From NCBI GenBank assembly GCA_964458565.1, contig CAYWJO010000004.1:32001-96000 (forward strand): a DNA stretch of 64,000 nt, read 5' to 3'. Position 1 is the stretch's first letter; the number at the start of each line of letters is the position of its first letter. Source of the stretch: an uncultured archaeon. Lineage in GTDB: Archaea > Asgardarchaeota > Thorarchaeia > Thorarchaeales > Thorarchaeaceae. The position numbers were made by a program, and so were the translations under genes. The notes below the pieces were generated by a model that saw only the letters and a list, made by a program, of their open reading frames with translations, ran no database searches and was not told where the DNA came from. Below are positions 19,711 through 63,439 of this stretch, in pieces.

Positions 19711-21378
19711 ATGGAGATTTATCCGATTCTAGTTGATGGCGAAGAAATCGATACTGGTACGTATTCGATTTTTCCCGATATGAACAAAGTCATTGCAGAT
19801 CCGGGGCTCGCAATTGCGCTACAATTGAGAGAGGCTTCAAGTGGACAGCAATTTGTCTTCTCCAAACTGCCACAGCTAATAACCTCAAAAACTGCTGAAA
19901 TGAAATATCTACGTGACTACCGAAAATATCATGGAGTACCAAAATATTCCAAGGACGAACTTGATGAAGTTGTTTTTGCGAAGGTAGCCATTTCTCGTGA
20001 GGTCGATATTGAACGTGCAATAGCTGCAGGCAAGAGGGATCATGAGAAACTTTTCAATCCATTCAATCATCCAAAGATGGGACTCACACTTCAGGAACGA
20101 GCGGATGCAATTTTTGAAGCAGGCGAATCACTTAGAAAACGCTGGACTGACCTAAGTGATATATCAGTCAAGGAAGGAATGCCAATAAAGACATTAAAAT
20201 GGGCTTGGGACTTGAAGGCATGGCAAGATTACCGTGCTTCCATTGATGAGTGGGCAAGTCTTCTTGATGTAATAGAAAAACCCGCTGTTGATGGAGGTAA
20301 GAATTACAGATTTCGAGAACCTTATGGAGTTGCCGCCTTATTTCCACCGTATAATGCGCCAATCGCTCTTGGAATCTTCAGCATTACCTCTTCGCTCCTT
20401 GCTGGTAACGCCTCCCTCTTGAAACCCCCTAATAAAGTTCCGCTGAGTATTATTTTCTTTGCTCAAATCTATTTAGAAAAATTCCTTGAGCTGGGACTTC
20501 CTCCGACATTGATCCAAGTATTGACAGGTGGTGGGAAACGGATGATGAATCGATTCATGTCAGATCCGCGTGTTAGTGCTATTGCCTGGTATGGTGATAG
20601 TGATACTGGATTCAATCTTTGGGCAAAAGCAATACAACGACGAATTCAGATGGCACCTGAGCTTGCAGGAAGTGATGCGTTTCTTGTTTGGGGAAATGAT
20701 GTTGATTTAGAAAAAGCTGTTGATTTAATTGTGAGTGGTAGATATCTTGGTAGCGGACAAGCTTGCATGGCTGTGAAGCGATTACTTGTTCAAGAATCCT
20801 TGCATGATGACTTGGTAGAACTAATAGTTGAAGAAGTTGAAAAACTGAAGATGGGTTTGCCATCAGATCCGGAGGTTACTCTACCACCTGTTGGACTTAC
20901 TGCACTATATCTATTGATTGACCAAATCAAAGATGCTTCTTCAAAAGGAGCAAAAATTGAAACTGGCGGTTACAGATGCAATTACCTTTCAGAACCGGAC
21001 TTAGCTGGATTATTCTACAAACCAACAGTATTGACTAATGTTACAACCGATATGCGAATCATGAACGAAGAGGTATTCGCACCTGCACTTCCGATAATGC
21101 CTGTTGAGAGCGTAGATTCTGCATTAAAAATTGCGAATAATTCCCGATTTGGCTTACGTTCGTCTGTCTTTACTACTGATATTAATGTCCGTCGTAGATG
21201 GGTAAAAGAAATTCAAGCTGCTGGTGTTGGAATAGGTGCAGACCACGTTTACTATGATCCCTACATGCCGCATTTAGGCGGATACAAAGATTCTGGCATA
21301 ATTGGTGGAAAATACTTCACCACAATGTTATCAAGAATGAAATATGTACATACAAGCCCAGAATCTGGGATTTTCTAA
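19711..21378 (+). CDS. Aldehyde dehydrogenase family protein
   Basis: REPYGV..F.PYNAP, AGN...KP, catalytic ELAG, GQAC and EEVFAP motifs. Confidence 0.9.
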   Translation: MEIYPILVDGEEIDTGTYSIFPDMNKVIADPGLAIALQLREASSGQQFVFSKLPQLITSKTAEMKYLRDYRKYHGVPKYSKDELDEVVFAKVAISREVDIERAIAAGKRDHEKLFNPFNHPKMGLTLQERADAIFEAGESLRKRWTDLSDISVKEGMPIKTLKWAWDLKAWQDYRASIDEWASLLDVIEKPAVDGGKNYRFREPYGVAALFPPYNAPIALGIFSITSSLLAGNASLLKPPNKVPLSIIFFAQIYLEKFLELGLPPTLIQVLTGGGKRMMNRFMSDPRVSAIAWYGDSDTGFNLWAKAIQRRIQMAPELAGSDAFLVWGNDVDLEKAVDLIVSGRYLGSGQACMAVKRLLVQESLHDDLVELIVEEVEKLKMGLPSDPEVTLPPVGLTALYLLIDQIKDASSKGAKIETGGYRCNYLSEPDLAGLFYKPTVLTNVTTDMRIMNEEVFAPALPIMPVESVDSALKIANNSRFGLRSSVFTTDINVRRRWVKEIQAAGVGIGADHVYYDPYMPHLGGYKDSGIIGGKYFTTMLSRMKYVHTSPESGIF

Positions 21379-24225: not shown

Positions 24226-25113
24226 TTATGTTCGACTCTTCCATTCTCGAATTTTGTATTTCAACTCCTCCTTGTCGCCCTCCTGTTTATTCCAGATTGA
24301 CGAAGTTCTTCGCATTTCAAACATGAGAGAACCTCCACGAGAGAGTTTTTGTTCTAGAATTTCTGCAGCGCTCTCCAATGCACGTGCTACACTCTCTCCT
24401 CCTTCAGTTCTTTCAACTATACTCTCTAATGAATCAAAAATTTGACTCGGTTGAGAGACCTTCCACTCCTCAACAGGTGCTTCGATTACTCGATATTTCT
24501 TTGCTGGAATTACTGTAGTTCCTTCCCTAATTTCTAATTCTCCTTCATTTTGGAGTGATTCGCAGAGAGTAATAGCTTCTGACATATCTGTGACTAGAAT
24601 GGCCGCTATTTCGTCAAGACGAACATGACGTCGTTGTAAAACAAGGCTCAAAATCCGATATTTCGGGTCTCCAATTTCCATCACAATCTCTCTAAGTTTC
24701 TCTGTAGCATCAGGTTCATTGTTGATGACTGCTGAAGCTGCTGCTGATAGAGTTCTCAAATCTCTTTGAAGTGCCTCAATCAATCTTTCCGAATCTACCA
24801 GCTGTTGTTTGAGTGAGTACTCATCTCCACCAGGTTGTTTCCTACTCAAAACTTGTGTCTGTTCAGCTTTCATTGTCTGAACTTCACGACCTACAGAGTC
24901 CAATGCTCCTTTATATTTTTGAATCTCTCCTCTAAGCATTTGTATCTCGCTATCCCGCGAAACAACATCACTTTCTAATGATGCCACACGAGTCTTCAAT
25001 TCATTCGCTCTTCCATAACTACCACTTAATTGTGCTTCAAGTGATTGCATTTTTTGATTTAGTTGGGCAATCTGCATGGTTTTATCGCGAAGTTTTTCAT
25101 TCAAATCTGACAT
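24226..25113 (-). CDS. Coiled-coil protein with winged-helix and helical C-terminal domains
   Basis: Heptad-rich N-terminal half; then DPKYRILSLVLQRRHVRLDEIAAIL...LCESLQNEGELEI, a wHTH pattern; ATG at 25113 avoids overlap with tatD. Confidence 0.7.
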   Translation of the reverse strand: MSDLNEKLRDKTMQIAQLNQKMQSLEAQLSGSYGRANELKTRVASLESDVVSRDSEIQMLRGEIQKYKGALDSVGREVQTMKAEQTQVLSRKQPGGDEYSLKQQLVDSERLIEALQRDLRTLSAAASAVINNEPDATEKLREIVMEIGDPKYRILSLVLQRRHVRLDEIAAILVTDMSEAITLCESLQNEGELEIREGTTVIPAKKYRVIEAPVEEWKVSQPSQIFDSLESIVERTEGGESVARALESAAEILEQKLSRGGSLMFEMRRTSSIWNKQEGDKEELKYKIREWKSRT

Positions 25114-25193
25114 AATACAACCCAGCAGGTGTAGTCCTAAGTCTAGAGTTAAAAAGGAAATCTCGGGTGAGCTCCTCACAGGATGAATCTTAC

Positions 25194-25946
25194 ATGGAAT
25201 TGTTTGATGCCCACACACATATCGATATGAAGCATTATCAAAATGATCGAGAACGAGTCATAGGTCGTGCTAAGGATGCTGGTGTGATTGGTATGGTGAC
25301 CTCATCGATTGGTGTAGGATCATTTAGAAGAACCCTGGGCATTGTCGAGAAACATAAGAACTATATCTATCAAACTGCAGGCTGCAGCGTATCCCAATTG
25401 AAATCTGATGAAGCTGATTCTATCATCCAGCTTACACGTAAATATTCTACAAAAATTGTTGCTGTTGGTGAAGTTGGGCTTGACTATCATTGGATTAAAG
25501 ACTATGCAGGACGCACAGCCCAAGAACCGCTCTTCTTGAAATTCATTGAACTGGCATCGGAACTTGAGCTACCTCTTGTTATTCATTCACGGAAAGCAGA
25601 GAAGGACGCAACAGACCTCCTTGAGAAACATTTCAGTGGAAGTGTTCTCATGCATTGTTATGATGGTGATTCTTCTGTCACCAATCGGATAATATCCAAT
25701 GGCTGGTCAATTACTCTTCCTGCTAATTTTAATCGATATAGAAACAGAATTGAAGCTGCTAAAACTGTGCCTCTTGAACAGATCCTTCTAGAAACAGATG
25801 GTCCCTATCTCTCACCCATTGAAGGACGCAATGAGCCATCCAATGTAAAATATGGGTGTAAATCTCTTTCCGACTTGCTAGAAATTGATGTTGATGATGT
25901 GGCATCTCAGACTACAGCTAATGCGAAAAAATTCTATGGAATTTGA
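25194..25946 (+). CDS. tatD: TatD family DNase
   Basis: DAHTH, GEVGLDY, PLVIHSR, HCY and LLETDGPYL motifs. Confidence 0.93.
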   Translation: MELFDAHTHIDMKHYQNDRERVIGRAKDAGVIGMVTSSIGVGSFRRTLGIVEKHKNYIYQTAGCSVSQLKSDEADSIIQLTRKYSTKIVAVGEVGLDYHWIKDYAGRTAQEPLFLKFIELASELELPLVIHSRKAEKDATDLLEKHFSGSVLMHCYDGDSSVTNRIISNGWSITLPANFNRYRNRIEAAKTVPLEQILLETDGPYLSPIEGRNEPSNVKYGCKSLSDLLEIDVDDVASQTTANAKKFYGI

Positions 25947-31518: not shown

Positions 31519-32394
31519 GTGAAAGAAATGGCAATGGAAGAGGCTACGCAATCCACAGATGATGGTATGCTATATCGTTCTGGTGCGATTGAATTACTCG
31601 GTAGGTCCTTGACAGTCTGGTATCGTGGACTATCAAGATTCATAATACTATTTGGACTTGGAATGATGTCTCTATCTTTTGTGATTAGTGCATTACTTTC
31701 GTATATTTTTCTTAATCCCGAACTAATATATTTCACAAGTTTTGACGGATTCGGATTTGTATTGAGAATTCCTGCTTATTCAGATTTGATTATCTTCAAT
31801 GTAATTGTGCTTTTATTCTCAACAGTCATCATGGGTATTATTGAAGCCCCCACAACAAAATTCACCCTTGATTTATACGAACAGAATACTCCTGAAGTTG
31901 ACAAAGCAATTGTCGAATCGAAGCCCAAAATAGGCGCTTTCATTCGTTTTCGATTGATTGTTATCCTTATAGAACTTGCATTTATACTCCCCATTCTATT
32001 CATCCTTCTTTTTGGTTATAGTATAGGGGACTTGAACCTGATTATAACTGGGGAAACAATGTCTCTAATGCTTGTCTTCATTGTCGGATATATTCATGTG
32101 CGATTCATTCCAGCTGCTCCTATTATCCTACGAGAAAATCTTTCCATTAGAGATGCAATTCAGCGTTGTTTCGATCTCACTAGCGGTCAGTTCATGCATA
32201 TTGCAATCGGATTTCTAGGTTTGGTTTTCTTTGAATTCATGATATTCTTCTTCATTGTGAATATCTTCTCGATATTTGGAACCAGCTATATTGCTATTCT
32301 TCTTCCATTCAATGTTTCTTTGCTTCTCTTCGCTGTACTACGACCGATATTTAGTGTAGTTGTATATAGGGATTTACTCTCTAGAGTAAAATGA
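31519..32394 (+). CDS. Membrane protein (GDPD membrane-anchor-like)
   Basis: About six TM segments; AIQRCFDLTSG.F and C-terminal YRDL patterns. Confidence 0.7.
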   Translation: MKEMAMEEATQSTDDGMLYRSGAIELLGRSLTVWYRGLSRFIILFGLGMMSLSFVISALLSYIFLNPELIYFTSFDGFGFVLRIPAYSDLIIFNVIVLLFSTVIMGIIEAPTTKFTLDLYEQNTPEVDKAIVESKPKIGAFIRFRLIVILIELAFILPILFILLFGYSIGDLNLIITGETMSLMLVFIVGYIHVRFIPAAPIILRENLSIRDAIQRCFDLTSGQFMHIAIGFLGLVFFEFMIFFFIVNIFSIFGTSYIAILLPFNVSLLLFAVLRPIFSVVVYRDLLSRVK

Positions 32395-49566: not shown

Positions 49567-52500
49567 CTAATAGACAGTAAACTTCGAAGGAGTGTATTCA
49601 ATTGCGCGACTTGGCAAAGGTTGGTTCATATGTAGTATCCTAACTTCCAAATAGTATCCAGTAACAACATCAATTGGGGGCGTGATCCATTGACTATTGA
49701 CTATGATCTCGCCATTATCGTCCAAGATCAGTGGATGGATAAATTCCTTGACGATATCTTTTTTTGAAAGAATTCGGATGGATACTTCGAGATTATCAAG
49801 ATTTTTAATGTCACTCTTAATCTTGGTTTCTATATCAATCATAGTTACTCGTTGAATAAACCCGGACAATCTTTCCCCTTTTCTATCCCTGAGTGCTGTT
49901 TCGACCCAAAATCTTGGACCTTCAAGCGCTTTTATTTTCATTTTATGAGTGTGCTCAATTTCTCTACCAGCGACTTTCAACTTTACATTGACATAGGCAG
50001 TACTCATCTCAATACTTAGAGGAATTTTAATTGTAATTGGAACAAGCTTTTGCTCAATGCTCTCTAACTCGAGTGGTTTGTTATAGACTAGTTGCTTCCC
50101 AAGTCTTGAATCAAACACAACCTCAAGTATCCCTTCAATTATTCCCTTACTTGTATTTTCTAATTGAATGATAGAGTTAATAACCTCGTTCGGATTCGCG
50201 AATCTGGGTACTCCGAGAATTTGGATATCAACTGGCAAACCCTTGCTCCCTTTATCAATCGAGATATCAACTGTCTTTTCATCAACAATACGACCATCGT
50301 AGATTAATACAGCAAGCAATTTTACATAATCGCTTGGTGTTTCAAAATCAGGTATCTGAAGCGGTCCGAAAGAAACGGATAGGTCTCTACTTGATTTCAA
50401 TCTCTGTTCAGTTAGCATTTTCCTTTGATTATCGGGTCCTATAATGTAAATTCGAATTGACGCCTTCCCACTATCATTAGCACTTCTTCTTATCCTCAAC
50501 CATCCTCGAAAGCTCTCACCAATTTGGACAATTCCTGGAGCTCTGAGGGATTCGATCCTCAGTACAACAGGTCGCGTATCTATTCGTATATGTTCAGATT
50601 CAACAATCGAGATTGAACTTTCATTATCACTCATCTCAGCTTGGATGACTCCAGATATCAGATCCTGTGTAAATGGTATGCTCCACTGAAAACCGAATTC
50701 TTCATTTATCAGGTTCGTAACATGAATCTGAGTTATGTCGTGGAAATCACCATCATCATTCTTGAACCGTATTCTTAGAATGGTGTCCTCCAGATCCATT
50801 CTATCCCTGTTTACTATCGAAATGCGTCCGTGGATTGCTTCTCCCGGTACTTTTCTCTTTGGCATCTCAATATCCAGTTTTAGTGAAGGTCCGCGATGTG
50901 AATAACCTACATAGAACGGCTTTGACGCAATATTCAAAATTTGCTGACCTGTGATATCTTGAAGTACTAGATGCAGATAACATCGTGCAACTCCCTCCTC
51001 ATTCTTATGTGGGATAACGAGCTTTGGGTACTGCTCTTGATTAAAGATAATGAGTTCTCCACTCTCCAATGTAAACTCTTTGGAAACCTGAACGAGTACT
51101 TTTTCTTGTTTTGGTGCAACTACTGAAATGATTGTCTTCAATTCGGTATCCGATGGATAATTTGTTTCAATCTCTCCGGAGAATTGAAGAGTAGAGATGC
51201 CATCAGCAAACTGTGTGGTGCTTGCTGTTCTGATTCCTGCCTTAATCCAGTAAGTTCTGATTGTTTCTGAGAGGTTGATTTGTCGACCTGCAATATCTGC
51301 AATTGCTAGTATGTTGTACGCAGTCTCAGGTCCTTCGGTTGGGAACGATACTCTTACTTCTTCAATTTCACCTACTTCTAACTCAGTAAGAGTGATTACG
51401 TCGTTTTGCACCCGCATTCGATTCGAGTTTTCAACATTGTATCGGATAACAAGATCTGTGATTACTCGATCAGATACATTTTGTAAAGTAATTGCGAATG
51501 AGGCTTTCTGACCAGCGAATATGAACTCCCCTTCAGGAATTATCTCTATCGCTAAGCCTTTCCACCATGAAAGCCAAGTTGGGAGATTGGGTCTCCCTCC
51601 AAGGGGATCAAATAACCAATTTGTGCAGCATTCTCTAGTAATGCCATAAAGACTTCTAAGCAGCACGACCATGTTCATATCAGATTCAGCATAAACTTTT
51701 AACTGGATATCTGCACCAGTCGTTTTTGGTTCAACAAATTCACTACCAAAAATCGAAGTCAATAGCGGTTGCATGAATGGATTCTCTGCAAGACCTAATT
51801 CCTCAAATTCATCTCTGATAATTCTAAGCATTGATATGATTCCGTCTGAAAGAAATCTATTCTTCTTATTGGAAATTGTACCATCATCGTTGATAGTGGA
51901 GTTGTAGAAACCTACGAACTCGCTCTCTGATGATGTGCTGGGTTTGAATGGTGCCCACAAACCTGCAGACACCGCAGATTCTCTATTGGTTGCAAGGCTA
52001 CCTGCACCAACATCCGGTATCCTCTCCCCATTTTCAATCATCCTTTTCGCTTTCAATGCAAGTGACTGGAGCAATAAGGCTAATCCAATCCGTCTCGGAA
52101 TTGAGAGTTGTGTATCAAAAACTCTGACCTCTATTGTCCCATAATCTGTGAATGGATAGATATCTACCATTCTAGCAAAACTTCGATTTACATGCTTGGA
52201 GAAATATTCTCTATCAGCATTGATCATAAACGGTATGAACTCGAATTCACTCGTTGGGCCCATTTGTGTTGTGTTCTTTAACAATCTAATAGAACGCTTA
52301 CATTTTGGTGCTCTAAGGTTGCCTTGCTCATCAATAATAACATTATCAGTCGGGATTTTATTTTCAAACGGTGAATTTACTGAAAGTGCAATAAGATGCG
52401 GAATAAAATTCCGAAACATGTTATACACACCAAGTCGAACTTCAATGTCAACATCGGGTCCAAGGATATGATGATGTTCTCCAAATGATAGATTCTTCAC

Positions 52501-52980
52501 GTATTCCTGTGTAGGATTCAAACCTGTTGAAACTAAAATTACACGCTCATCTTTTGGCAACGATTCCTGTGAGATTGCCAAAAGGGTTTGAATCCACCAT
52601 GCTAGTTCTTCAAGTGTTGTGCATGGTGGTGTGGCAATCTCTAATATCCACGTAAGACTTGTGACATTGGGATCATGTCCAATGAGTGTATATTCTTTAT
52701 AATTTCCCTGAGGGTCTTCATAATTTGCTATGATTCTGGACCCACGTTCACCTTCTTCAGTTTGTGCCGTGAACTTGCACTTGTTCGCTACTGATTTTAT
52801 CTTCGTTGAACGGATTCGTTGGTCAAGAAGTCCTTTTGCTCTTGAAATTAATTTATCGAAGATATCAACTACTTCTTCTCCTCTAATCCAGCTACCATCT
52901 TTTCGTATTAGTTGTAGTTCTGCCTCTATACCATGTGCAAAATGTAGAACCGTTTCTGCGTCATTGTCTATAGAGGTCAT
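49567..52980 (-). CDS. GCS2/YbdK-type carboxylate-amine ligase fused to multiple Ig-like beta-sandwich domains
   Basis: GIEAELQ, LEIATPP, FGEHHHI, ALSVNSPF and GTIEVRVFD motifs in the N-terminal ~330 aa; the remainder is beta-strand repeats. Confidence 0.8.
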   Translation of the reverse strand: MTSIDNDAETVLHFAHGIEAELQLIRKDGSWIRGEEVVDIFDKLISRAKGLLDQRIRSTKIKSVANKCKFTAQTEEGERGSRIIANYEDPQGNYKEYTLIGHDPNVTSLTWILEIATPPCTTLEELAWWIQTLLAISQESLPKDERVILVSTGLNPTQEYVKNLSFGEHHHILGPDVDIEVRLGVYNMFRNFIPHLIALSVNSPFENKIPTDNVIIDEQGNLRAPKCKRSIRLLKNTTQMGPTSEFEFIPFMINADREYFSKHVNRSFARMVDIYPFTDYGTIEVRVFDTQLSIPRRIGLALLLQSLALKAKRMIENGERIPDVGAGSLATNRESAVSAGLWAPFKPSTSSESEFVGFYNSTINDDGTISNKKNRFLSDGIISMLRIIRDEFEELGLAENPFMQPLLTSIFGSEFVEPKTTGADIQLKVYAESDMNMVVLLRSLYGITRECCTNWLFDPLGGRPNLPTWLSWWKGLAIEIIPEGEFIFAGQKASFAITLQNVSDRVITDLVIRYNVENSNRMRVQNDVITLTELEVGEIEEVRVSFPTEGPETAYNILAIADIAGRQINLSETIRTYWIKAGIRTASTTQFADGISTLQFSGEIETNYPSDTELKTIISVVAPKQEKVLVQVSKEFTLESGELIIFNQEQYPKLVIPHKNEEGVARCYLHLVLQDITGQQILNIASKPFYVGYSHRGPSLKLDIEMPKRKVPGEAIHGRISIVNRDRMDLEDTILRIRFKNDDGDFHDITQIHVTNLINEEFGFQWSIPFTQDLISGVIQAEMSDNESSISIVESEHIRIDTRPVVLRIESLRAPGIVQIGESFRGWLRIRRSANDSGKASIRIYIIGPDNQRKMLTEQRLKSSRDLSVSFGPLQIPDFETPSDYVKLLAVLIYDGRIVDEKTVDISIDKGSKGLPVDIQILGVPRFANPNEVINSIIQLENTSKGIIEGILEVVFDSRLGKQLVYNKPLELESIEQKLVPITIKIPLSIEMSTAYVNVKLKVAGREIEHTHKMKIKALEGPRFWVETALRDRKGERLSGFIQRVTMIDIETKIKSDIKNLDNLEVSIRILSKKDIVKEFIHPLILDDNGEIIVNSQWITPPIDVVTGYYLEVRILHMNQPLPSRAIEYTPSKFTVY

Positions 52981-53596: not shown

Positions 53597-54652
53597 TTAT
53601 AGGGGTCCATCGCCCAGTTCGCCTGCAAAGTGACAGGCCACCACATGATCATTATCCATATCCCTATCCTCTGGAATCTCTCTAACACAGATTTCCTGTG
53701 CGTATGGGCATCTCGGGTGAAATCTGCAACCTGGTGGAACATTAATTGGACTTGGTGGTTCGCCCTTTAGTGATTCAACTCGTTTCTTCACCGTTGGATC
53801 ACCAGATGGTACTGCAGATATCAATGCTCGAGTATAGGGGTGCAATGGATTGAATGCAACCTCATGCGCGGGTCCAATCTCCATAATCTTACCAAGATAC
53901 ATGATTCCGATTCTATCGGCGATGTATGTAGCGATAGCAAGGTCGTGAGTAATGAACAGATAAGTGAGTCCTAGCTCTTCACGTAGCTGAAGCAACAAGT
54001 TAAGAATCTCTGCACGAATTGATACATCGAGCATTGAAACTGGCTCATCGGCAACCATGAATTCCGGATGCAATATGAGTGCTCTGGCTACTGATATACG
54101 CTGGCGTTGACCACCTGAGAGTTCATGTGGATAACGATCGATGTAATCCCCTGCAGGTGTAATTGCTACACTCTCAAGTGCCTCAAGAACACGTTTTCTT
54201 CTCTGACTTGGTGTTAATGGAAGTTTATGAACCGTCAGCGGTTCTGCAACAATACTGAAAATACTCTGTTTCGGATTGAGGGATTCGTATGGATCCTGAA
54301 AGGTAATCTGCATTTTCTTACGTAATTCTTTCATCTCTTGTCTGTCCAAAGTAGATAGGTCCTGTCCCGCGTACACAACCTGACCATCAGTTGGTAATTC
54401 AAGATATAGAACACATCGACCTGTTGTAGTCTTCCCGCATCCAGATTCGCCTGCAAGTACTAACACTTCACCTTTCTTGATATCGAAGCTCACTCCATCA
54501 ACTGCTCTCACGAAAAGTTCTTGTTTGTAGAGTAGCGATGATAGGAAGCCAGTGTTTACAGGAAACCACTTTCTCATATTGCGGACCTGAATAAGTGCAT
54601 CACCTTCAGTAACTGTTGATTGTGCGATTACACCTCTATCGTCAATTGTCAT
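53597..54652 (-). CDS. oppF: Oligopeptide/dipeptide ABC transporter ATP-binding protein
   Basis: GESGCGKT, FQDPY.SLNP, LSGGQRQR, DEPVSMLD, HPYT and GCRFHPRC motifs. Confidence 0.93.
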   Translation of the reverse strand: MTIDDRGVIAQSTVTEGDALIQVRNMRKWFPVNTGFLSSLLYKQELFVRAVDGVSFDIKKGEVLVLAGESGCGKTTTGRCVLYLELPTDGQVVYAGQDLSTLDRQEMKELRKKMQITFQDPYESLNPKQSIFSIVAEPLTVHKLPLTPSQRRKRVLEALESVAITPAGDYIDRYPHELSGGQRQRISVARALILHPEFMVADEPVSMLDVSIRAEILNLLLQLREELGLTYLFITHDLAIATYIADRIGIMYLGKIMEIGPAHEVAFNPLHPYTRALISAVPSGDPTVKKRVESLKGEPPSPINVPPGCRFHPRCPYAQEICVREIPEDRDMDNDHVVACHFAGELGDGPL

Positions 54653-54664
54653 TTCTTCGCCTCC

Positions 54665-55654
54665 TTACTCCAAATCCACTGTTAGCTCGCCTCTGAGTTT
54701 CTCGGCGAAGTGACATGCTACCCATCTGTCTGGCTCAATCTCGTCGAATGATGGTTCTTCTCTGGAACAGATATCTTGAGCGTATGGACATCTCGGATGG
54801 AATCTGCACCCTGTAGGTGGCTCAATCAAGTCAGGTGGTGAACCGGGGATTGAGGTAAGTTTTTTCTTTTCAGCTTTCACCATGCTTGGGATTGCTCCTA
54901 CAAGTCCTGCTGCATACGGGTGAATTGGTTCTTTGAATACAGATACTACATCCGCAAGCTCTGCAATACGACCCGCATACATGATTGCCGTCTTATCGCA
55001 TGTTTCTGCAATAACACTCAAGTCGTGAGTAATCAAAATCAGCGACAGACCCAAGTCTTTCTGAAGTTTTTGCATTAGCTTCAGTATTTGGGCCTGAATT
55101 GTAACATCCAGGGCAGTTGTTGGCTCGTCTGCAATAACCAAGTCTGGATTACAGGCAAGAGCCATGGCAATCATTGCACGTTGGCGCATTCCACCAGAGA
55201 ACTCATGGGGGTAGTTATGAATACGACCTGGATCAAGACCAACCATTTCGAAGAGTTTAGCGCATCTATCCAGTGCTTCTTCCTCTGTCACGTTTTCGTG
55301 CATAAGAATAGCTTCTGCAATTTGCTCGCCGATTTCAAAGACCGGATTGAGCGCATTCATCGCACCTTGAAAGACAATTGCAACATTCTTCCATCGAATA
55401 TCACGCATCTCTTTCGCACTCTTCCTAATCAAGTCGTCACCCTTGAAGTAGACGTTTCCACCTACTATATTTGCTGCGGGGGGCAAAAGTTGCATTATTG
55501 AGTATGCAAGACTACTCTTTCCACAACCACTTTCTCCGGCTAGACCGACTGATTCTCCTGATTCAAGTTGGAGGGACACATTATCCACGGCTTTGACCAA
55601 GCCTTTCATTGTCTGGTAATACATGCGCAGATTTCTAATATCAAGCAATGGCAT
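54665..55654 (-). CDS. oppD: Oligopeptide/dipeptide ABC transporter ATP-binding protein
   Basis: [26 protein letters not shown] and DEPTTALD motifs; start placed at ATG 55654 (MPLLDIRNL). Confidence 0.93.
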
Positions 55655-55873
55655 GTTTCTTTTCTCCGCGGGAGCTATAAGATGGATTTGGTTTCTTAAC
55701 AACCATTCCAAGCGAGGCTTGCCCCTTGGTTGGCTTAAATATGTTGCTTTCAGCTCAATGAACAAAATGGGTTTTTCATTAATTGTATATCCGGCAATTG
55801 GGAACTGCAAGTGTTGCCATGCCTAGTGCGAAACTAGTAAAAGGCACTACCCTCATATCTGCTATGTGTAACT

Positions 55874-56320: not shown

Positions 56321-57961
56321 ATGTCTGAAGAAACCAAACAGGCTGGATGGAAAGACCGCAACTTGTACGTTAGCATCACTGGATTCTGGGGTGAATACAA
56401 GAAACACAGAATCGGACTAATTGGTCTATTCGTACTTATAATGTACTTTGGAATCGCAATCTTTGCTCCTGTAATATCACAAGGAGTAGATCCCTCACCA
56501 ACCAATAAGGTTGCACCACCATTCCTCGCACCTAGCTGGATGGCTGTGTTTGATCCAACCGGTGTCGTGACAGGGGAATTATCCCCCGATCCATATCTTA
56601 ATGTGAATCCTAATGCAACATCAGACCCCGTTCTTTCAAAAATCAACATTGTAAGGAAAAATGGTACTAATACGGATCCATTCGATTATGCGTATGGGGA
56701 TGGCTATGTCAATCTGACCTGGACGCACACTGCTGGAACTGAATATTGGTGGAAACCTGAGCTTGATAATCTGCCGTTGGGTCAGATTCTTCCCAGAACT
56801 GAGCCGCAGGTCAATGATTTCATTATGTTTGAGCAAGAGCTCCCGTGGTTATACCAGACCATGCCTTCTGATGTAAATATGACTTTTGAATTGGGTGTGA
56901 AGCTGAATGGAGATTTCACGAGAACATATGGAGGACTAATGTTCAAGATTTATATATATCTCATTGATTCTGCAGGTAATTGGTGGCAAGTTTATGAATC
57001 AGTTCCACCTTATGAATCACTTGTTGTAAATCGCCGAATTGACCTGAGTGGTTTTGACGTTGTTGAGGGCTGGGAAGGTATAACCGGAAGTAACGAAACA
57101 GGTTCCGATTTTGTCAAAGACCCTGAACCTTGGGTTAAAGTTGGAGTTGTACTCTCACCAACCCGTAACTTTCGTGAGAGACTAAGTCCTAGTAATCCAG
57201 ATGATTTTCCATACCTTGTTTATAATGGAAGTGTAGAAGTCCATGTCACTACTCTGAGTACCATTGCCTATGGTCCTTATTATGGAATTTTAGGCACAAC
57301 AGATAAGGGTGGAGACGCGTGGTCTCAACTTATCTATGGGACTCGTATCTCATTGATTATCGGAATCTTGGCAACTGGGTTGTCCACCGCCGTGGGAGTC
57401 ATTGTAGGGCTCGTAGCGGGATATTTCGGTGGAAAAATAGACGAAGCGCTCATGAGGGTCGTTGACTTCCTGCTTGTCATACCTGGGCTGCCGCTTATGA
57501 TGGTTCTCGCGGCTTTTCTGGGGCCGACAATAGGAAACATCATCCTCGTCATCTCGATTCTGGGATGGACGGGGACATCTCGGTTGATACGGTCACAGGT
57601 GATGGCCGAGAAGAACAAAGCATACGTTGAGAGTGCGAAGGCCATTGGAGCCTCCGATACATACATCATCTTCAGACACATTCTCCCGAATGTGACTCCA
57701 ATCCTGTTCGCAAACATTACCCTGGGTGTCGTCGGAGCCATCCTCTCAGAATCTGGTCTTGCGTTCCTTGGTCTCACTGACCCAAGTGAGCCAAGCTGGG
57801 GCAGAATGCTTGCTGATGCCCAGACCGCTGGTGGATTCAGCAACGGTGCATGGTGGGTCGTAGTCTTTCCAGGACTGATGATCACAGCATTATCTCTATC
57901 ATTCACCTTTATTGGTCATACACTTGACCAAGTACTTAATCCAAGGCTCAGAGAACGTTAA
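56321..57961 (+). CDS. oppC: Oligopeptide ABC permease OppC-type, copy 1, with large extracellular insertion
   Basis: LGT...G.D..SQL..G.RISL, YVESAKAIGAS...I.RHILPN and WG.ML motifs. Confidence 0.92.
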   Translation: MSEETKQAGWKDRNLYVSITGFWGEYKKHRIGLIGLFVLIMYFGIAIFAPVISQGVDPSPTNKVAPPFLAPSWMAVFDPTGVVTGELSPDPYLNVNPNATSDPVLSKINIVRKNGTNTDPFDYAYGDGYVNLTWTHTAGTEYWWKPELDNLPLGQILPRTEPQVNDFIMFEQELPWLYQTMPSDVNMTFELGVKLNGDFTRTYGGLMFKIYIYLIDSAGNWWQVYESVPPYESLVVNRRIDLSGFDVVEGWEGITGSNETGSDFVKDPEPWVKVGVVLSPTRNFRERLSPSNPDDFPYLVYNGSVEVHVTTLSTIAYGPYYGILGTTDKGGDAWSQLIYGTRISLIIGILATGLSTAVGVIVGLVAGYFGGKIDEALMRVVDFLLVIPGLPLMMVLAAFLGPTIGNIILVISILGWTGTSRLIRSQVMAEKNKAYVESAKAIGASDTYIIFRHILPNVTPILFANITLGVVGAILSESGLAFLGLTDPSEPSWGRMLADAQTAGGFSNGAWWVVVFPGLMITALSLSFTFIGHTLDQVLNPRLRER

Positions 57962-58017: not shown

Positions 58018-58294
58018 AAGAATCATTTAATCGAATCCCAGATTTCTGGGTTAGTCTATCACTCGAGATCTATATGAATCATCAGTGTTCCCTCGAATTC
58101 AGAGAGCCTACAATCAGTGACATCGTTTCCACGAGAATCTTGGATATCAACGGGTGTAATTGTATATAGCTGCCACTTTCGTACATAGTAGTACCATGAA
58201 CACTATGTTTATTAATTGCAAAACAACTTACTACCTTGGCTCGCAGTACTTAGTGTCCCTAGGTATTGTATGATAATAACAAGGAGCGTTAAAA

Positions 58295-59375
58295 ATGGGT
58301 CTACGAGAGTACGTTATCAGACGTGGTATCTACATGTTCTTACTTGTAGTTGCTGTAGTCTGTTTCAACTTTTTCCTATTCAGACTTCCGACGCTTGTAC
58401 TTGGTATCAGCCCTGTTGACCTTATGATCAGTGAGGAACTTCGGCGAAACCTCACCCAAGATGCATTGCAGCAGATCTATGTCCAATTCGGTCTTGTTCC
58501 AGACCCAGACATTTTCGACTGGATCTACATGTTCTGGAGATATCTTGTCAACATGTTCACAGGTAACTTTGGACGCTCATTTGTATCCAAGACCCCAGTA
58601 ATGGCTGAGATTGCATCAAGATTACCCAACACACTCTTGTTGATGGGTACATCTTCAATTGTTTCAATCATTATCGGTATCTGGACTGGTGTCAAAGTTG
58701 CTGCTGATCCCGGTTCACGTAAAGACGTTGGTGCAGTTACTGTCGCGTTGTTCATCTATGCACTCCCAATCTTTTGGTTCGGAATGCTATTACTGATGGT
58801 TTTCGCATTCTATATGCGAACGGCGACGGGTGGCTTATTCTACTTCCCGCTTGGTGGAACAATCGATTATGCCCTTTGGGGAATCGCAAAGGAGAGCCCC
58901 TATGGGGCTTTGATGTTGGCCGGTAATATATTGCACCACCTGTTCCTTCCAATGATTACCCTTGGTGTCGGTGGCTATGGTGGTTACTTCTTGTACATGA
59001 GGAACAATCTAAATCCGGATTACATTGCGAATTCGGAAGAGAATAGACGTCATGACAGAAGACTACATACTGACCGCACGAGCAAAGGGATTGGACGAGA
59101 ACCAGGTACTGTACAAGCACGGTCTGAAAAATGCGCTACTACCAATGGTAACAATAATAGCCATGAATTTTGGCTTCCTAATCAATGGAGCGACGCTTAC
59201 AGAAACGGTGTTCAACTGGTACGGGATGGGTCGGTATATATTCACCAGCCTGTTCCAGTTAGACTATCCTGTGGTCCAAGCGATATTTATGGTAATCGCG
59301 ATAACAGCGATACTTGCGAATTTCGTGGCAGACCTTCTGTATGGAGTCCTTGACCCGCGAATCAAGTACGGGTAG
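58295..59375 (+). CDS. oppB: Oligopeptide ABC permease OppB-type, interrupted by a 31-nt insert (candidate intron; otherwise a frameshifted pseudogene)
   Basis: The 5' frame gives G.FG.S, RLPNTL.L, P.FWFG and HL.LP up to MRNNL. The other frame continues IDVMTEDYILTARAKG...H.LKNALLP...ETVF.W.GMG...DYPVVQ...DPRI. Removing 31 nt gives a 349-aa protein. Confidence 0.88.
59013..59043 (+). other. Candidate 31-nt bulge-helix-bulge/loop-type intron in oppB
   Basis: 8-bp internal stem 59014-21/59030-37, AAA bulge 59011-13, short central helix and exon-exon pairing; canonical cut positions restore CTA ATA GAC. Confidence 0.55.
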
Positions 59376-59377
59376 GG

Positions 59378-59431
59378 CCGCATCAGAAATGCGGATGGGA
59401 CTGAAATCCATCCGCTGTTTGTTCTTTTTTT
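59378..59431 (+). terminator. Overlapping hairpins + U-tract after oppB
   Basis: CCGCAT/ATGCGG (59378-94) overlaps GCGGATGG/CCATCCGC (59391-415); a T-rich tract follows. Confidence 0.6.
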
Positions 59432-59748
59432 CATTCCTTTTTACCTTTCAATACAATTCTTATAATTATTAACCACATCCGTCAGTATCGTGTTCACATT
59501 CTTTCACCAATTGTTCGTGATAGGAGGAGAGCGGATGAAATAAAGGTCCACCTACCTCTCGATAATTATTGATTGTTTGCTTGAACCCACACTGTTACAT
59601 TCATTCGCATGTTAGGATATTGACGGTGCAAATTCATTCCTAAGTCAAAATCTTGATAAGTGGAATGCCATTCGCACCGACCACGACTTCGGGATTTGGT
59701 AAACTCACGCTATTTTTCCGAGCTCGTATTTTCGACGAGGAACGAAAG

Positions 59749-61332
59749 ATGTCTGATGAATCCCCACAAATTGACTGGCGCGACTCAAACTGGTACACAT
59801 CAATCGCTGATTTTGTAAGTAAATTTAGACGTCATAGGATGGGACTCATTGGGATAACAATCCTAATTTTTTACATCGTAATCGCGATTGCTGCTCCATT
59901 TATCGTTCCTTACGATCCTTCTCCCGCAAATAAGATTGCACCTCCCTTTCTTGCACCTGCTTGGATGCAAGTCTTTGATCCTCTGGGGGTTGTTACATCA
60001 GAACAAATCGACAATCAATATCTCGAATCATCACCCAACGTTACTATAGTTGGTGCCCATCAAGATAGATTCTCTTCAGTTCATTATCCAAGTTCACAAA
60101 ATAAGAGCCATTTCAATATGACTTGGACGCATGTTGCCGGACAAGAATTGGATTTCCACGAAACACTGGATAATACAGTTCATCCTGATTGTATGGATTT
60201 CATCTATATGACTCATACATTCGAGTGGGGATTTCAAAGCATGCCCAGTGATGTAAACATGACCTTCGATTATGGTGTAACTCGTACTGGTACCTTTGCT
60301 ACTCAAGAATATAGTGGACTTATGTTTAAGGTTTTCATCTATCTGATAGATTCTTCAGGTAACTGGTGGAAAGTCTACGAGTCTTTCCCACCATATTATG
60401 AATTGATCCAAAATAGACGTATTGATTTAAGCTACTTCGATGTAGTCGAAGGTTGGGAGGGTATGACTTCACACCTAAATCAGACCGAAGATCCAACAAA
60501 ACAATTGACAGTTGCTGTCGTTTTATCACCTACGGATAATTTCAGAAAATCTAGAAGTCCTAGCAATCCGATTGACTATCCGATCCTCAATTATACTGGG
60601 TCAGTTACTGTGCAGATAAAACGTTTGAGTATGATTGCATATGGAGATTACTTTGGTATTCTTGGTACCACTGATAAAGGTGCAGATGCATATAGCCAGT
60701 TAATATGGGGAACTCGAATATCATTAACAATTGGAATTCTAGCAACAGGCATCTCAACAGCAGTTGGTGTGGTTGTTGGAATGACCGCAGGATATTTCGG
60801 TGGAAAACTAGACGAGATATTAATGAGGGTTGTTGACTTCCTCCTCGTGATACCAGGACTGCCGCTTATGATGGTCCTTGCGGCCTTCCTAGGGCCGACT
60901 ATAGAAAATATAATTGTGGTCATATCTATACTTGGTTGGACGGGGACGTCTCGTCTGATCCGGTCACAGGTGATGGCTGAAAAGAACAAGGCATACGTCG
61001 AGAGTGCGAAGGCAATTGGAGCCTCCGATACTTACATTATATATCGTCACATTCTCCCTAATGTAACACCAATCTTGTTCGCTGACATAACATTGGGTGT
61101 CGTTGGTGCCATCCTTTCGGAATCTGGTCTTGCGTTCCTTGGTCTTACTGACCCAAGCGAACCAAGCTGGGGTAGAATGCTTGCTGACGCACAGGCCGCT
61201 GGTGGATTCAGCAATGGTGCATGGTGGGTTGTAGTCTTCCCGGGACTGATGATTACTATATTGTCACTCGCTTTCACCTTTGTTGGTCATACGCTTGATC
61301 AAGTACTTAATCCGCGTTTGCGTGAGAGATAG
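59749..61332 (+). CDS. oppC: Oligopeptide ABC permease OppC-type, copy 2, with large extracellular insertion
   Basis: Same motifs as copy 1; start placed at ATG 59749 by alignment to copy 1 and an upstream GAGG. Confidence 0.92.
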   Translation: MSDESPQIDWRDSNWYTSIADFVSKFRRHRMGLIGITILIFYIVIAIAAPFIVPYDPSPANKIAPPFLAPAWMQVFDPLGVVTSEQIDNQYLESSPNVTIVGAHQDRFSSVHYPSSQNKSHFNMTWTHVAGQELDFHETLDNTVHPDCMDFIYMTHTFEWGFQSMPSDVNMTFDYGVTRTGTFATQEYSGLMFKVFIYLIDSSGNWWKVYESFPPYYELIQNRRIDLSYFDVVEGWEGMTSHLNQTEDPTKQLTVAVVLSPTDNFRKSRSPSNPIDYPILNYTGSVTVQIKRLSMIAYGDYFGILGTTDKGADAYSQLIWGTRISLTIGILATGISTAVGVVVGMTAGYFGGKLDEILMRVVDFLLVIPGLPLMMVLAAFLGPTIENIIVVISILGWTGTSRLIRSQVMAEKNKAYVESAKAIGASDTYIIYRHILPNVTPILFADITLGVVGAILSESGLAFLGLTDPSEPSWGRMLADAQAAGGFSNGAWWVVVFPGLMITILSLAFTFVGHTLDQVLNPRLRER

Positions 61333-61504: not shown

Positions 61505-63439
61505 ATGCTTAAAGACCGTCGACGAGTTCTTGCATTAACACTCGTTGCCGCTTTTGCGTTTATGGCAATTTCACCTATATTTGCCACAGCACAATTTACA
61601 GTTCCAGGTGGACTTAAAAATGGTCCATATGTGGACAAAATTGTGTATAACGTAATTGAAGGTGACGACCAGCAGGTCCTCGCTCTACAGAATGACGAGA
61701 TCGATCTTATCGGTGATATGGTCGATCCAACTCACCTAGCCACTTTACAGGCAGCTGAGAATATTGAGGTAGCAAACGTACTCCGAAACGGGTACGGTTA
61801 TGTTACCATTAACACAGCAAAGAACCCATTCAACTACACAGACTTCAGACGAGCAATTGCCTTTGCTCTTGACAAGCAGGCAATCTCAGACGATGCTTGG
61901 GATGGTTTATCAGAACCTCAAGACTCAATGGTAGCTAAAGTCAACCCGTTCACAAGTGAAGGCCTTCTACCTTACACTTACTATGAGGCACAGGTTGCTC
62001 TTGGAAATCAGATGCTGGATGACCTCGGAATGGAAATTGATCCCCTCACAACCTTCAGACTCACACCAAATGGTGATGCATTTGACGTGCTAGTTGAGTG
62101 CGCACAGTCATCCAACATTGCTATTGAAGTTGGTGAGAAGGTTGCTGAAGCACTTCGTGCTCTACACGTTGATGCAGTATCAGAACCAACTGACTTCTAT
62201 GAGTATCTGAACAGGCTCTACTTCCACGGTGACTATGACATCGTATTCCTTGGTTCAAGCTTCACCACCTTTGATGTTGACTGGATTGCCTATGAGTACT
62301 GGTCAGAGTTTGCTGATGAGCCATACTACAACTTCCCCAACTGGCAGAACGCAACCTACGACAGCTGGAGAGACCAACTCCTCCATGCGACTCAGTTTGA
62401 AGATGTCTACGAGGCAGCCTTCAAGATGCAGGAGATATGGGTCCATGCATGTCCAATGATCATCTGTTATGAGAACACTCTCTTGTCAGCCTATAGGACC
62501 GATAAGTTCGAGGGTCTCATTAACAGTGTGATTGATGGTGTACCTGGATGGTGGACAAACTACAAAGTTCACCTCAAGCCAGGTCAGTCTGGTGCTCCTT
62601 GGAGTGGTACATTCCGCTGGAGTAATCCACTCGACCTTGACACCTTCAACTTCATGACGGGCAGCTCTGCGTACACCAATAATGTCCTCATGAATCTCTA
62701 CGACAGTCTCATGACCATTGATTACAATGGTAACGACATATTGTGGTTGGCGGAGAATTATTTCGCTGAAACCCACGCTGATAATCCATCAGTGCCAGAT
62801 GGCTATACCAGATTTACATTCGATATGATTCAGAATGCAACCTGGACTGATGGTACTCCACTGACTGCTGAGGATGTTGCATACTCGCTCAACTATTTCC
62901 GTGATTCGCCAGCTAACCCATACGGTCCTGACCTTTTGGAGATGACTGCAGCGTATGCTCCAACAACATACAGGGTTGTAATAGAATTCAGTACTGAGTC
63001 ATATTGGCATCTACATACTGTTGCATACAAGACCATTATTCCGAAGCACTTCTTCTTGACTATTGGTCTTGATGGATGGAACACTTGGGATCCACAGCCT
63101 CCAACAGAGGGTATGGTCACATCAGGTCCATTCAATGTGTCTGACTACGTTGCTGGTGAGTTCTGTGAAGTGACTTGGAATCCAGACTACTTCTATGGTA
63201 TGGATCGTGATGAGATTTGGCAAACAACAACACCTGGTCCAACCACATCCACATCCACAACCACGACTCCAATTACAACGACTGAGCCTGGAACAACCAC
63301 TGAAACAACCACAACCACTGAAGAACCAACCACTCCTGTAGCACCTGTACAAGACTTCACCATGGCAATTGTTGCCGGTGCAGTTGGTGCGGCAGTTGTG
63401 ATTCTCGTTGGTGGATATGTACTGCTTAGGCAGAAGTAG
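61505..63439 (+). CDS. oppA: Oligopeptide ABC substrate-binding protein (family 5) with Thr-rich linker and C-terminal TM anchor
   Basis: Signal peptide; GPYVDKI, FRRAIAFALD, LYDSL, WTDG.PLTAEDV and SGPF motifs; TTT-rich linker; hydrophobic tail ending RQK. Confidence 0.92.
   Translation: MLKDRRRVLALTLVAAFAFMAISPIFATAQFTVPGGLKNGPYVDKIVYNVIEGDDQQVLALQNDEIDLIGDMVDPTHLATLQAAENIEVANVLRNGYGYVTINTAKNPFNYTDFRRAIAFALDKQAISDDAWDGLSEPQDSMVAKVNPFTSEGLLPYTYYEAQVALGNQMLDDLGMEIDPLTTFRLTPNGDAFDVLVECAQSSNIAIEVGEKVAEALRALHVDAVSEPTDFYEYLNRLYFHGDYDIVFLGSSFTTFDVDWIAYEYWSEFADEPYYNFPNWQNATYDSWRDQLLHATQFEDVYEAAFKMQEIWVHACPMIICYENTLLSAYRTDKFEGLINSVIDGVPGWWTNYKVHLKPGQSGAPWSGTFRWSNPLDLDTFNFMTGSSAYTNNVLMNLYDSLMTIDYNGNDILWLAENYFAETHADNPSVPDGYTRFTFDMIQNATWTDGTPLTAEDVAYSLNYFRDSPANPYGPDLLEMTAAYAPTTYRVVIEFSTESYWHLHTVAYKTIIPKHFFLTIGLDGWNTWDPQPPTEGMVTSGPFNVSDYVAGEFCEVTWNPDYFYGMDRDEIWQTTTPGPTTSTSTTTTPITTTEPGTTTETTTTTEEPTTPVAPVQDFTMAIVAGAVGAAVVILVGGYVLLRQK
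63223..63334 (+). repeat. Low-complexity ACN-codon tract encoding the Thr/Pro/Glu linker
   Basis: TTTPGPTTSTSTTTTPITTTEPGTTTETTTTTEEPTT. Confidence 0.8.

Follow-up and report, generated by a model that had tools for sequence, protein, structure and literature searches.

A probable tRNA-type mini-intron in the oppB transporter gene of a Thorarchaeota genome

Can a transporter gene that changes reading frame inside a conserved motif, among intact partner genes, still encode its normal permease? This question was raised by oppB, a gene in a window of 64,000 nucleotides (nt), the whole stretch of DNA analysed here (positions 32,001 to 96,000 of contig CAYWJO010000004.1, assembly GCA_964458565.1). 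Positions given below are those of the window unless another contig is named. The original prediction had placed within the OppB motif MRNNL/IDVMTEDY a 31-nt frameshifting insert with a relaxed splicing-endonuclease motif, in an Asgard-like host. The host was indeed of this kind, the nearest records being metagenome-assembled genomes (MAGs) of Thorarchaeota/Promethearchaeota; the assembly comprises 3.73 Mb in 93 contigs with a G+C content of 40.9%. As judged from the analyses reported here, the insert is probably a young, lineage-specific mRNA intron of the tRNA type, which would be cut out by the tRNA-splicing endonuclease EndA and whose exons would be joined by RtcB. The parts of the gene are as follows.

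58295-59375, + strand: oppB, whole gene with the insert.
58295-59012, + strand: exon 1, comprising 239 codons and the first base of codon 240 (open reading frame and translation); Pfam BPD_transp_1 profile positions 2-74.
59013-59043, + strand: the 31-nt insert, a proposed EndA-type mini-intron (equivalent registers 59011-59041 and 59012-59042).
59044-59375, + strand: exon 2, comprising the last two bases of codon 240, 109 codons and a TAG stop; profile positions 76-183.

Open reading frames (ORFs) and their translations located the change of frame after codon 239 (MRNNL). Beyond this codon, the ORF at 58295-59353 remained out of frame over 113 codons, of which 11 came from the insert and 102 from exon 2, and the true OppB C-terminus was carried by the ORF at 59025-59375, beginning IDVMTEDYILTARAKGL. 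The match to BPD_transp_1 was interrupted at the same place, ending at profile position 74 in exon 1 and resuming at 76 in exon 2. In a set of 19 orthologues, all belonging to other genera of this family, exon 1 was matched at 79-85% identity and the two parts abutted without any gap. The same gapless junction was encountered in another 98 orthologous loci, taken from species-representative genomes and metagenomes, which fixes the length of the insert at exactly 31 nt. Since AA stands at both flanks, it can be written in three equivalent registers. Its excision gave AAT CTA ATA GAC (N-L-I-D), which restored the motif and an OppB of 349 amino acids (aa), so that the predicted frameshift was confirmed by ORFs, profile positions and 117 orthologous loci alike. 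The predicted junction of the spliced mRNA is AACAATCTAATAGACGTC; the predicted peptides are NNLIDVMTEDYILTAR for the spliced and NNLNPDYIANSEENR for the unspliced product.

Such an insert might be an artefact of assembly or sequencing, or a minority allele that entered the consensus by chance, as the genome is a 93-contig MAG and one of its contigs (C45) contains an unresolved scaffold gap with duplicated flanks. However, the exact 352-aa read-through product, which needs the insert, occurred in records of NCBI, JGI/IMG and Logan, from two contigs, and a one-off assembly error is thus unlikely. An 8-bp hairpin in the splicing register is not expected of an artefact either, and sister inserts exist in the same genome (see below), one of them common to another genus. 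An artefact was consequently considered very improbable. Scans of metagenome and genome contigs recovered no same-species DNA, the best matches being at most 88% identical.

The RNA structure of the insert was examined in minimum free energy (MFE) and constrained folds, with the following elements.

58980-59002, + strand: distal exon-exon stem, 5' strand (MFE fold).
59007-59010, + strand: central helix H, 5' strand (AUCU, in the exon), pairing with 59038-59041 (AGAG) through three Watson-Crick pairs and an A·G.
59011-59013, + strand: bulge B1 (AAA), unpaired in both MFE and constrained folds; predicted 5' cut after 59012.
59014-59037, + strand: intron hairpin h', arms 59014-59021 and 59030-59037, 8 bp including one G-U, with an 8-nt loop.
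59038-59041, + strand: helix H, 3' strand (AGAG, in the intron); TCT at 59008-59010 lies opposite AGA at 59038-59040, and A59007 opposite G59041.
59042-59044, + strand: site of bulge B2 (AAU), which opens into an internal loop; 3' cut predicted after 59043.
59048-59066, + strand: distal exon-exon stem, 3' strand (MFE fold).

On direct re-reading, all coordinates first proposed for the hairpin, the bulge, the central helix and the AAT were correct. Folding of 58980-59068 gave an MFE of -27.3 kcal/mol (z = -4.97; matched by none of 200 shuffles) and displayed the anticipated exon-exon helix and hairpin: a long exon-exon stem, an internal loop, a 3-bp helix, the 3-nt AAA bulge and the 8-bp hairpin. 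The hairpin taken by itself was unexceptional (z = -1.2). Pairs of h' had a probability of 0.93, and a possible extra pair, C59023-G59029, would leave an apical loop AUUGC. No outer helix adjoined B2 (h = 0), which opened into an internal loop (4 x 6) that G59002-C59048 and the distal stem closed off. The insert thus departed from the strict bulge-helix-bulge (BHB) form in three respects, namely H (three pairs and an A·G), B2 (in the internal loop) and h (zero), and displayed the relaxed HBh' form with H, a true 3-nt bulge and the 8-bp h'. By the nomenclature quoted in PMC5829648, it would be classed as a relaxed HBh'/bulge-helix-loop motif, as originally proposed. No Rfam match was found in 58200-59700.

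According to the cut rule, EndA cleaves after the second base of each bulge. The rule was checked on the tRNA-Thr(GGU) of the same genome (contig C7). The intron there combined an anticodon stem of 5 bp with a 4-bp H, had UAA and UUA as its bulges and carried a 30-nt hairpin of 9 bp; cutting by the rule produced the 7-nt anticodon loop UUGGUAA. Applied to oppB, the rule gave the cuts first proposed, 59012/59013 and 59043/59044, which remove exactly 31 nt, leave the junction found in the 117 orthologous loci and yield the 349-aa protein. Among shuffled 31-mers, H of at least three pairs together with h' of at least eight in a register preserving the product arose with P = 2e-5 (P = 1e-3 for h' of at least five); with the hairpin kept and placed at a random offset, P was 0.03.

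Enzymes for such a reaction were encoded in the genome. Two EndA paralogues of 187 aa and 212 aa were found, the latter more divergent; the former matched, along its entire length, crenarchaeal tRNA-splicing endonuclease chains (3p1z_B, 1.4e-45), which are presumably catalytic alpha subunits. RtcB was also present (589 bits). As far as their sequences tell, the two EndA paralogues fit the two-subunit, broad-specificity type. Asgard EndA has been described as an (alpha-beta)2 type with an L1 loop, and relaxed motifs as being cut only by the (alpha-beta)2 and epsilon2 types (PMC5829648). The whole genome contained 32 tRNA genes (aragorn), mostly interrupted, several of them by introns of 29-34 nt. 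By simple rules, only four or five tRNAs displayed the strict hBHBh' motif, so that relaxed motifs are probably common in the organism's own tRNAs.

In the proposed mechanism, the exon-exon stem (58980-59002 with 59048-59066) would present the insert as a hairpin in the pre-mRNA, where the 8-bp h', the AAA bulge and the AUCU/AGAG helix would make up the relaxed motif. A two-subunit EndA would then cut at 59012/59013 and 59043/59044, the sites that the rule assigns to the two bulge positions, and RtcB would ligate the exons into ...AAT CTA ATA GAC..., giving the normal permease.

Further inserts of this kind were sought by comparing the 4,434 ORFs from 2.8 Mb of a complete relative (G025) with the present genome by tblastn, 1,688 of which had a match of at least 50% identity. 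Only five inserts of 30-31 nt were found in conserved genes: oppB (31 nt), ahcY (31), EF-1alpha intron 1 (31), EF-1alpha intron 2 (30) and actin (30). Where the original prediction had proposed to look for other frameshifts flanked by BHB/BHL motifs, the genome thus held four more inserts of the same design.

C45:20257-20290: EF-1alpha intron 1, a 31-nt frameshifting hairpin insert with no adjacent outer helix.
C45:20424-20456: EF-1alpha intron 2, 30 nt with an in-frame TGA.
C1:109608-109635, - strand: insert in the main actin gene, 30 nt, canonical BHB with H 4/4, a 9-bp hairpin and an in-frame TAA, located before MWVSRKEF.
C1:187507-187540, + strand: insert in ahcY (S-adenosylhomocysteine hydrolase), 31 nt, frameshifting and of BHB type, inside the motif GHPSEVMD.

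Ten other split alignments emerged from the same comparison. Three lay at short N runs, which account for three apparent frameshifts on contigs C2 and C12; the remaining seven differed by 1-5 nt or, in a single instance, by 225 nt. The reverse comparison revealed no 30-31-nt insert of this kind in G025, where a lone 31-nt candidate turned out to be an ordinary gene junction. An in-frame 11-residue insertion at C4:80954 (window ~48954, - strand) was discarded as an ordinary indel in a variable loop. A genome-wide scan for BHB motifs with ORF merging was abandoned as a census, being dominated by gene junctions with no clear peak at 30-31 nt; it did recover the inserts of oppB, ahcY and EF-1alpha intron 2. 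Within EF-1alpha, an N run at C45 ~20575-20675 displayed the same ~55-nt sequence on both flanks; this is an unresolved scaffold join and not biology.

All five inserts shared the H-bulge-hairpin design, stood on a long exon-exon stem and obeyed the cut rule, giving orthologue-like junctions (FQK/MW in actin, DFI/KNM in EF-1alpha intron 2, HPSEVMD in ahcY, and likewise in EF-1alpha intron 1). Both EF-1alpha inserts had the apical loop AUUUC and the actin insert AUUCC, to be compared with AUUGC in oppB if C59023-G59029 is paired. The ahcY insert was absent from G025, and EF-1alpha intron 1 was unique among 86 family genomes, being absent from the 85 others; it was as lineage-specific and as relaxed as the oppB insert, to which it is the closest parallel. 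The actin intron is older: it also occurred in another genus (L339, G013:C24:27574-27601), where a single change has made a G·U pair G-C.

No second close copy of EF-1alpha, ahcY or the main actin gene was found in the assembly; the single EF-1alpha locus was followed by a next match of 28% identity. Removal of their inserts is accordingly close to obligatory, a position that oppB does not share. EF-1alpha is indispensable to a cell. Since EF-1alpha intron 1 interrupts the only locus found for it, young relaxed inserts must, by this reasoning, be removed from mRNA in this organism.

The sister inserts also bear on translational recoding, by which the insert would be read with a +1 shift (a 10-residue insertion) or ribosomes would bypass the 31 nt. 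Read in the incoming frame, the insert is free of stops; it also contains a hairpin, and the unspliced frame is open for 102 codons, all of which would suit recoding. Direct reading of 59000-59050 nevertheless revealed no slippery or shift-prone site and no matched take-off and landing codons, neither CTA nor AAT before the insert having an in-register partner at 59040-59045. Neither a stop nor any +1 shift site of a known kind was present, and ten added residues would moreover hit a motif that is without any indel in 84 orthologues. Finally, the in-frame sister inserts contain stop codons (TAA in actin, TGA in EF-1alpha), so that removal of such inserts at the RNA level is required in this genome. 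Recoding was therefore regarded as extremely improbable.

The main rival is a very recent insertion that is spliced poorly or not at all, which would make oppB a fresh pseudogene producing a 352-aa protein with a nonsense tail. The following observations weigh against splicing and mostly in favour of this alternative. The insert was confined to one MAG, hence without conservation or covariation, and its close relatives were all uninterrupted: an intron at the same site was absent from the 19 + 98 orthologous loci, eight close proteins and 85 family genomes, and the same-position inserts with compensatory changes that might have been expected among the orthologues were accordingly not encountered in these 19 + 98 loci. 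Neither a look-alike nor a donor of the insert (at most 3 mismatches in 29 nt) was present in its own genome or in the 85 family genomes, and a protein-fragment search found no short fragments bearing the spliced junction together with the organism's own residues. The motif was the weakest of the five, with its three pairs and A·G in H and its 3' site in the 4 x 6 internal loop. Of the naked-RNA ensemble, ~12% had the 3-bp helix in its BHB register and ~80% had it displaced by 2 nt. An unspliced insertion could also survive because oppB is probably dispensable, four distant oppB paralogues (29-34% identity) being located elsewhere in the genome. Failed intron arrivals are plausible as well, since 71 of 129 high-confidence gains of tRNA introns in Asgard archaea were placed on terminal branches (10.64898/2026.10.13.758758).

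In terms of fold energy, oppB was no outlier, its BHB register lying 1.1 kcal/mol above the MFE as compared with 1.8, 2.2, 3.3 and 0 in the sister inserts and 5.1 in the canonical tRNA-Thr. Nor are young introns defined by conservation at the same site; EF-1alpha intron 1 is likewise unshared.

The state of the gene also argues against a pseudogene. Eight uninterrupted relatives (336-358 aa, five of them full-length at 349 aa) were retrieved by protein search, with exon 1 91-96% identical. Exon 2 was identical at 110 of 110 positions to three relatives (P0126, P0127 and P0123), whose exon 1 was 92-95% identical, and exon 1 differed at 13 positions from the two full-length proteins among them. 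At 89 conserved columns, exon 2 displayed a single private change, which is the median of 84 sequences. The non-synonymous divergence (dN) was 0.03-0.06 and the synonymous divergence (dS) saturated, as between intact orthologues. The relaxed selection on the 3' half that would betray a pseudogene was thus not observed, and the rest of the transporter locus was intact. By a rough estimate, exon 2 would already differ at several positions had it drifted neutrally for more than about 10% of that branch; if the insert inactivated oppB, it therefore did so very recently. To this are added EF-1alpha intron 1, equally young and equally relaxed, which must be removed from the only EF-1alpha locus found, and a geometry that fits the cut rule at P = 0.03 even with the hairpin given. 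An unspliced recent insertion was accordingly judged unlikely, and splicing of the oppB insert is the favoured reading.

If the intron is spliced, is its removal regulated? The original prediction suggested that it might control oppB. In such a scheme, the 349-aa permease and the 352-aa form would both be made and their ratio would tune transporter assembly. Consistent with this, the unspliced frame was open for 102 codons through exon 2 (59044-59353, + strand), coming as close as 22 nt to the normal stop, as it was in only 1 of 83 orthologues (median first stop at codon 4), with P = 0.0004 under synonymous resampling at genome-wide codon usage; a relaxed motif could also render cleavage inefficient. 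Compared with orthologues, however, the signal was weak. Four of the 83 had at most one stop in that frame, making oppB only a ~5% outlier, and a Fisher test of exon 1 versus exon 2 gave p = 0.13. Exon 2 was moreover poor in T-ending codons overall (T3 0.14 versus 0.30 in exon 1), the alternative tail was hydrophilic and of low complexity, and the other frameshifting sister introns did not keep their unspliced frame open. Regulated or alternative splicing thus appeared very unlikely. No sign pointed to regulated rather than constitutive removal, and the suggestion of control was left unsupported; removal is most likely constitutive, and the oppB intron is probably a tolerated passenger and not a regulator.

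Why the insert is located where it is may be answered by its exons. The exon-exon duplex of oppB had an energy of -19.1 kcal/mol, rank 1 of 84 orthologues (mean -10.65, standard deviation 3.3), a rank that is no independent statistic because the 84 sequences are related. The duplex already reached -17.9 and -17.2 kcal/mol in the nearest intron-less relatives, so that the site was predisposed. The insert sits at the would-be apical loop of a pre-existing exon-exon stem.

Among the closest known systems is the BHB intron found in crenarchaeal cbf5 pre-mRNA (Watanabe 2002; Yoshinari 2006; Yokobori 2009, PMC2738675). These introns measure 16-44 bp, often display a relaxed motif and are tied to a hetero-oligomeric EndA (PMC2738675). 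A study from 2020 still listed cbf5 as the sole case in coding sequence and added an intron in a 5' untranslated region of Haloferax (PMC7714728). The oppB insert resembles them as a short intron in coding sequence (31 nt) with a relaxed motif in a host of hetero-oligomeric EndA, in its patchy gain and loss and in being mis-annotated by gene callers as a frameshift. It differs in its phylum (Asgard), in its gene (a transporter), in its restriction to one MAG and in its splicing, which is predicted here, whereas cbf5 splicing was experimentally shown and the intron occupies one site in many genera.

Asgard tRNA introns (PMC5829648; 10.64898/2026.10.13.758758) and the organism's own tRNA-Thr(GGU) agree with oppB in size class, hairpin design and cut rule, and in repeated recent gains with no identified donor. 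A preprint of 2026 reported many such recent gains, by a route of arrival that remained unknown, and did not mention mRNA (10.64898/2026.10.13.758758). In oppB, the exon half is mRNA instead of an anticodon arm, and the distal exon-exon stem across the internal loop replaces the outer helix. The inserts of EF-1alpha, ahcY and actin share with oppB their length, H-bulge-hairpin, exon-exon stem and cut rule, as well as a similar apical loop in EF-1alpha and actin; oppB stands apart from them by the weakest central helix and, unlike the actin intron, was not encountered in another genus.

The BHB intron of Haloferax volcanii HVO_1309 (PMC7714728) shows the archaeal splicing endonuclease acting on an mRNA, outside tRNA and rRNA. 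That intron resides in an untranslated leader, has no frame to restore and had its cleavage confirmed both in vivo and in vitro. In eukaryotic HAC1/XBP1 splicing, IRE1 cleaves the mRNA and ligation is carried out by Trl1 (yeast) or RtcB (metazoa) under stress regulation. The oppB intron resembles this system in the protein-only excision of a short frame-changing mRNA intron from hairpin loops with joining by a tRNA ligase, and differs from it in endonuclease, stem-loop motif and stress regulation; no membership relation exists between them. A paper on RtcB in HAC1 splicing is cited in PMC5829648.

The surrounding locus encoded a complete Opp/Dpp-type transporter, with divergent oppD/oppF, oppC, oppB, a second oppC and oppA, all intact except oppB. 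The description of oppB as the sole B-type permease of the locus held, its four paralogues being found only elsewhere in the genome. The accompanying features are listed below.

53597-55810, - strand: oppD/oppF-type ATPase pair, intact and divergent; Pfam ABC_tran and oligo_HPY in both.
56321-57961, + strand: oppC paralogue 1, intact; Pfam OppC_N and BPD_transp_1.
59391-59415, + strand: terminator-like hairpin with a T-rich tail, 9 bp, G+C-rich, 16 nt past the oppB stop (consensus scan only).
59749-61332, + strand: oppC paralogue 2, intact; Pfam OppC_N and BPD_transp_1.
61505-63439, + strand: oppA-type solute-binding protein, intact; Pfam SBP_bac_5.

Non-coding DNA of ~330-370 nt flanked oppB on either side, so that oppB may be its own transcription unit. 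The order oppC-oppB-oppC was kept in G025. In both OppC paralogues (527-546 aa), ~300 extra residues separated the permease domain from the transmembrane segment of OppC_N. At its C-terminus (63200-63439, + strand), the oppA-type protein had a Thr/Pro-rich linker and then a hydrophobic segment that looks like a membrane anchor. An ORF of 1,137 aa at 49567-52980 (- strand) gave no Pfam match at E <= 0.001. Elsewhere in the assembly, on the - strand of contig C39 (ORF 24486-25197, reverse-complement), one frame corresponded to two adjacent genes of G025 (L262:14848-15571, - strand), a small Cys-rich protein and a cupin-like protein, here joined as ...HIVEEEWMNDY...; it may represent a gene fusion or a lost stop codon.

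In the literature searched, tRNA-endonuclease splicing inside archaeal coding sequence was confirmed for cbf5 of Crenarchaeota only (PMC2738675, PMC7714728), and no paper on mRNA introns of Asgard archaea or Thorarchaeota was found. Within the favoured reading, the oppB intron is most likely of the cbf5 type in a new phylum and a new gene. If so, mRNA splicing of this type would reach Asgard archaea and an ordinary metabolic gene, and EndA-type introns would still be being gained in coding sequence. Automatic annotation would then miscall working genes as frameshifted, as it did here with a 352-aa product and its false tail. EndA-type introns are unrelated to spliceosomal introns, and the bearing on eukaryote origins is therefore indirect. 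The oppB case also provides a candidate rule, by which introns lodge at the tips of pre-existing exon-exon stems. With at least five inserts here against none in the ~1,700 comparable ORFs of the complete relative, the balance tips slightly towards a burst of gains of ~30-nt EndA-type introns in coding genes, of which oppB would be the youngest and which would persist on exon-exon stems. This organism would then be the first known prokaryote reliant on several protein-spliced mRNAs, and the gain of introns in coding sequence could be followed in it under natural conditions.

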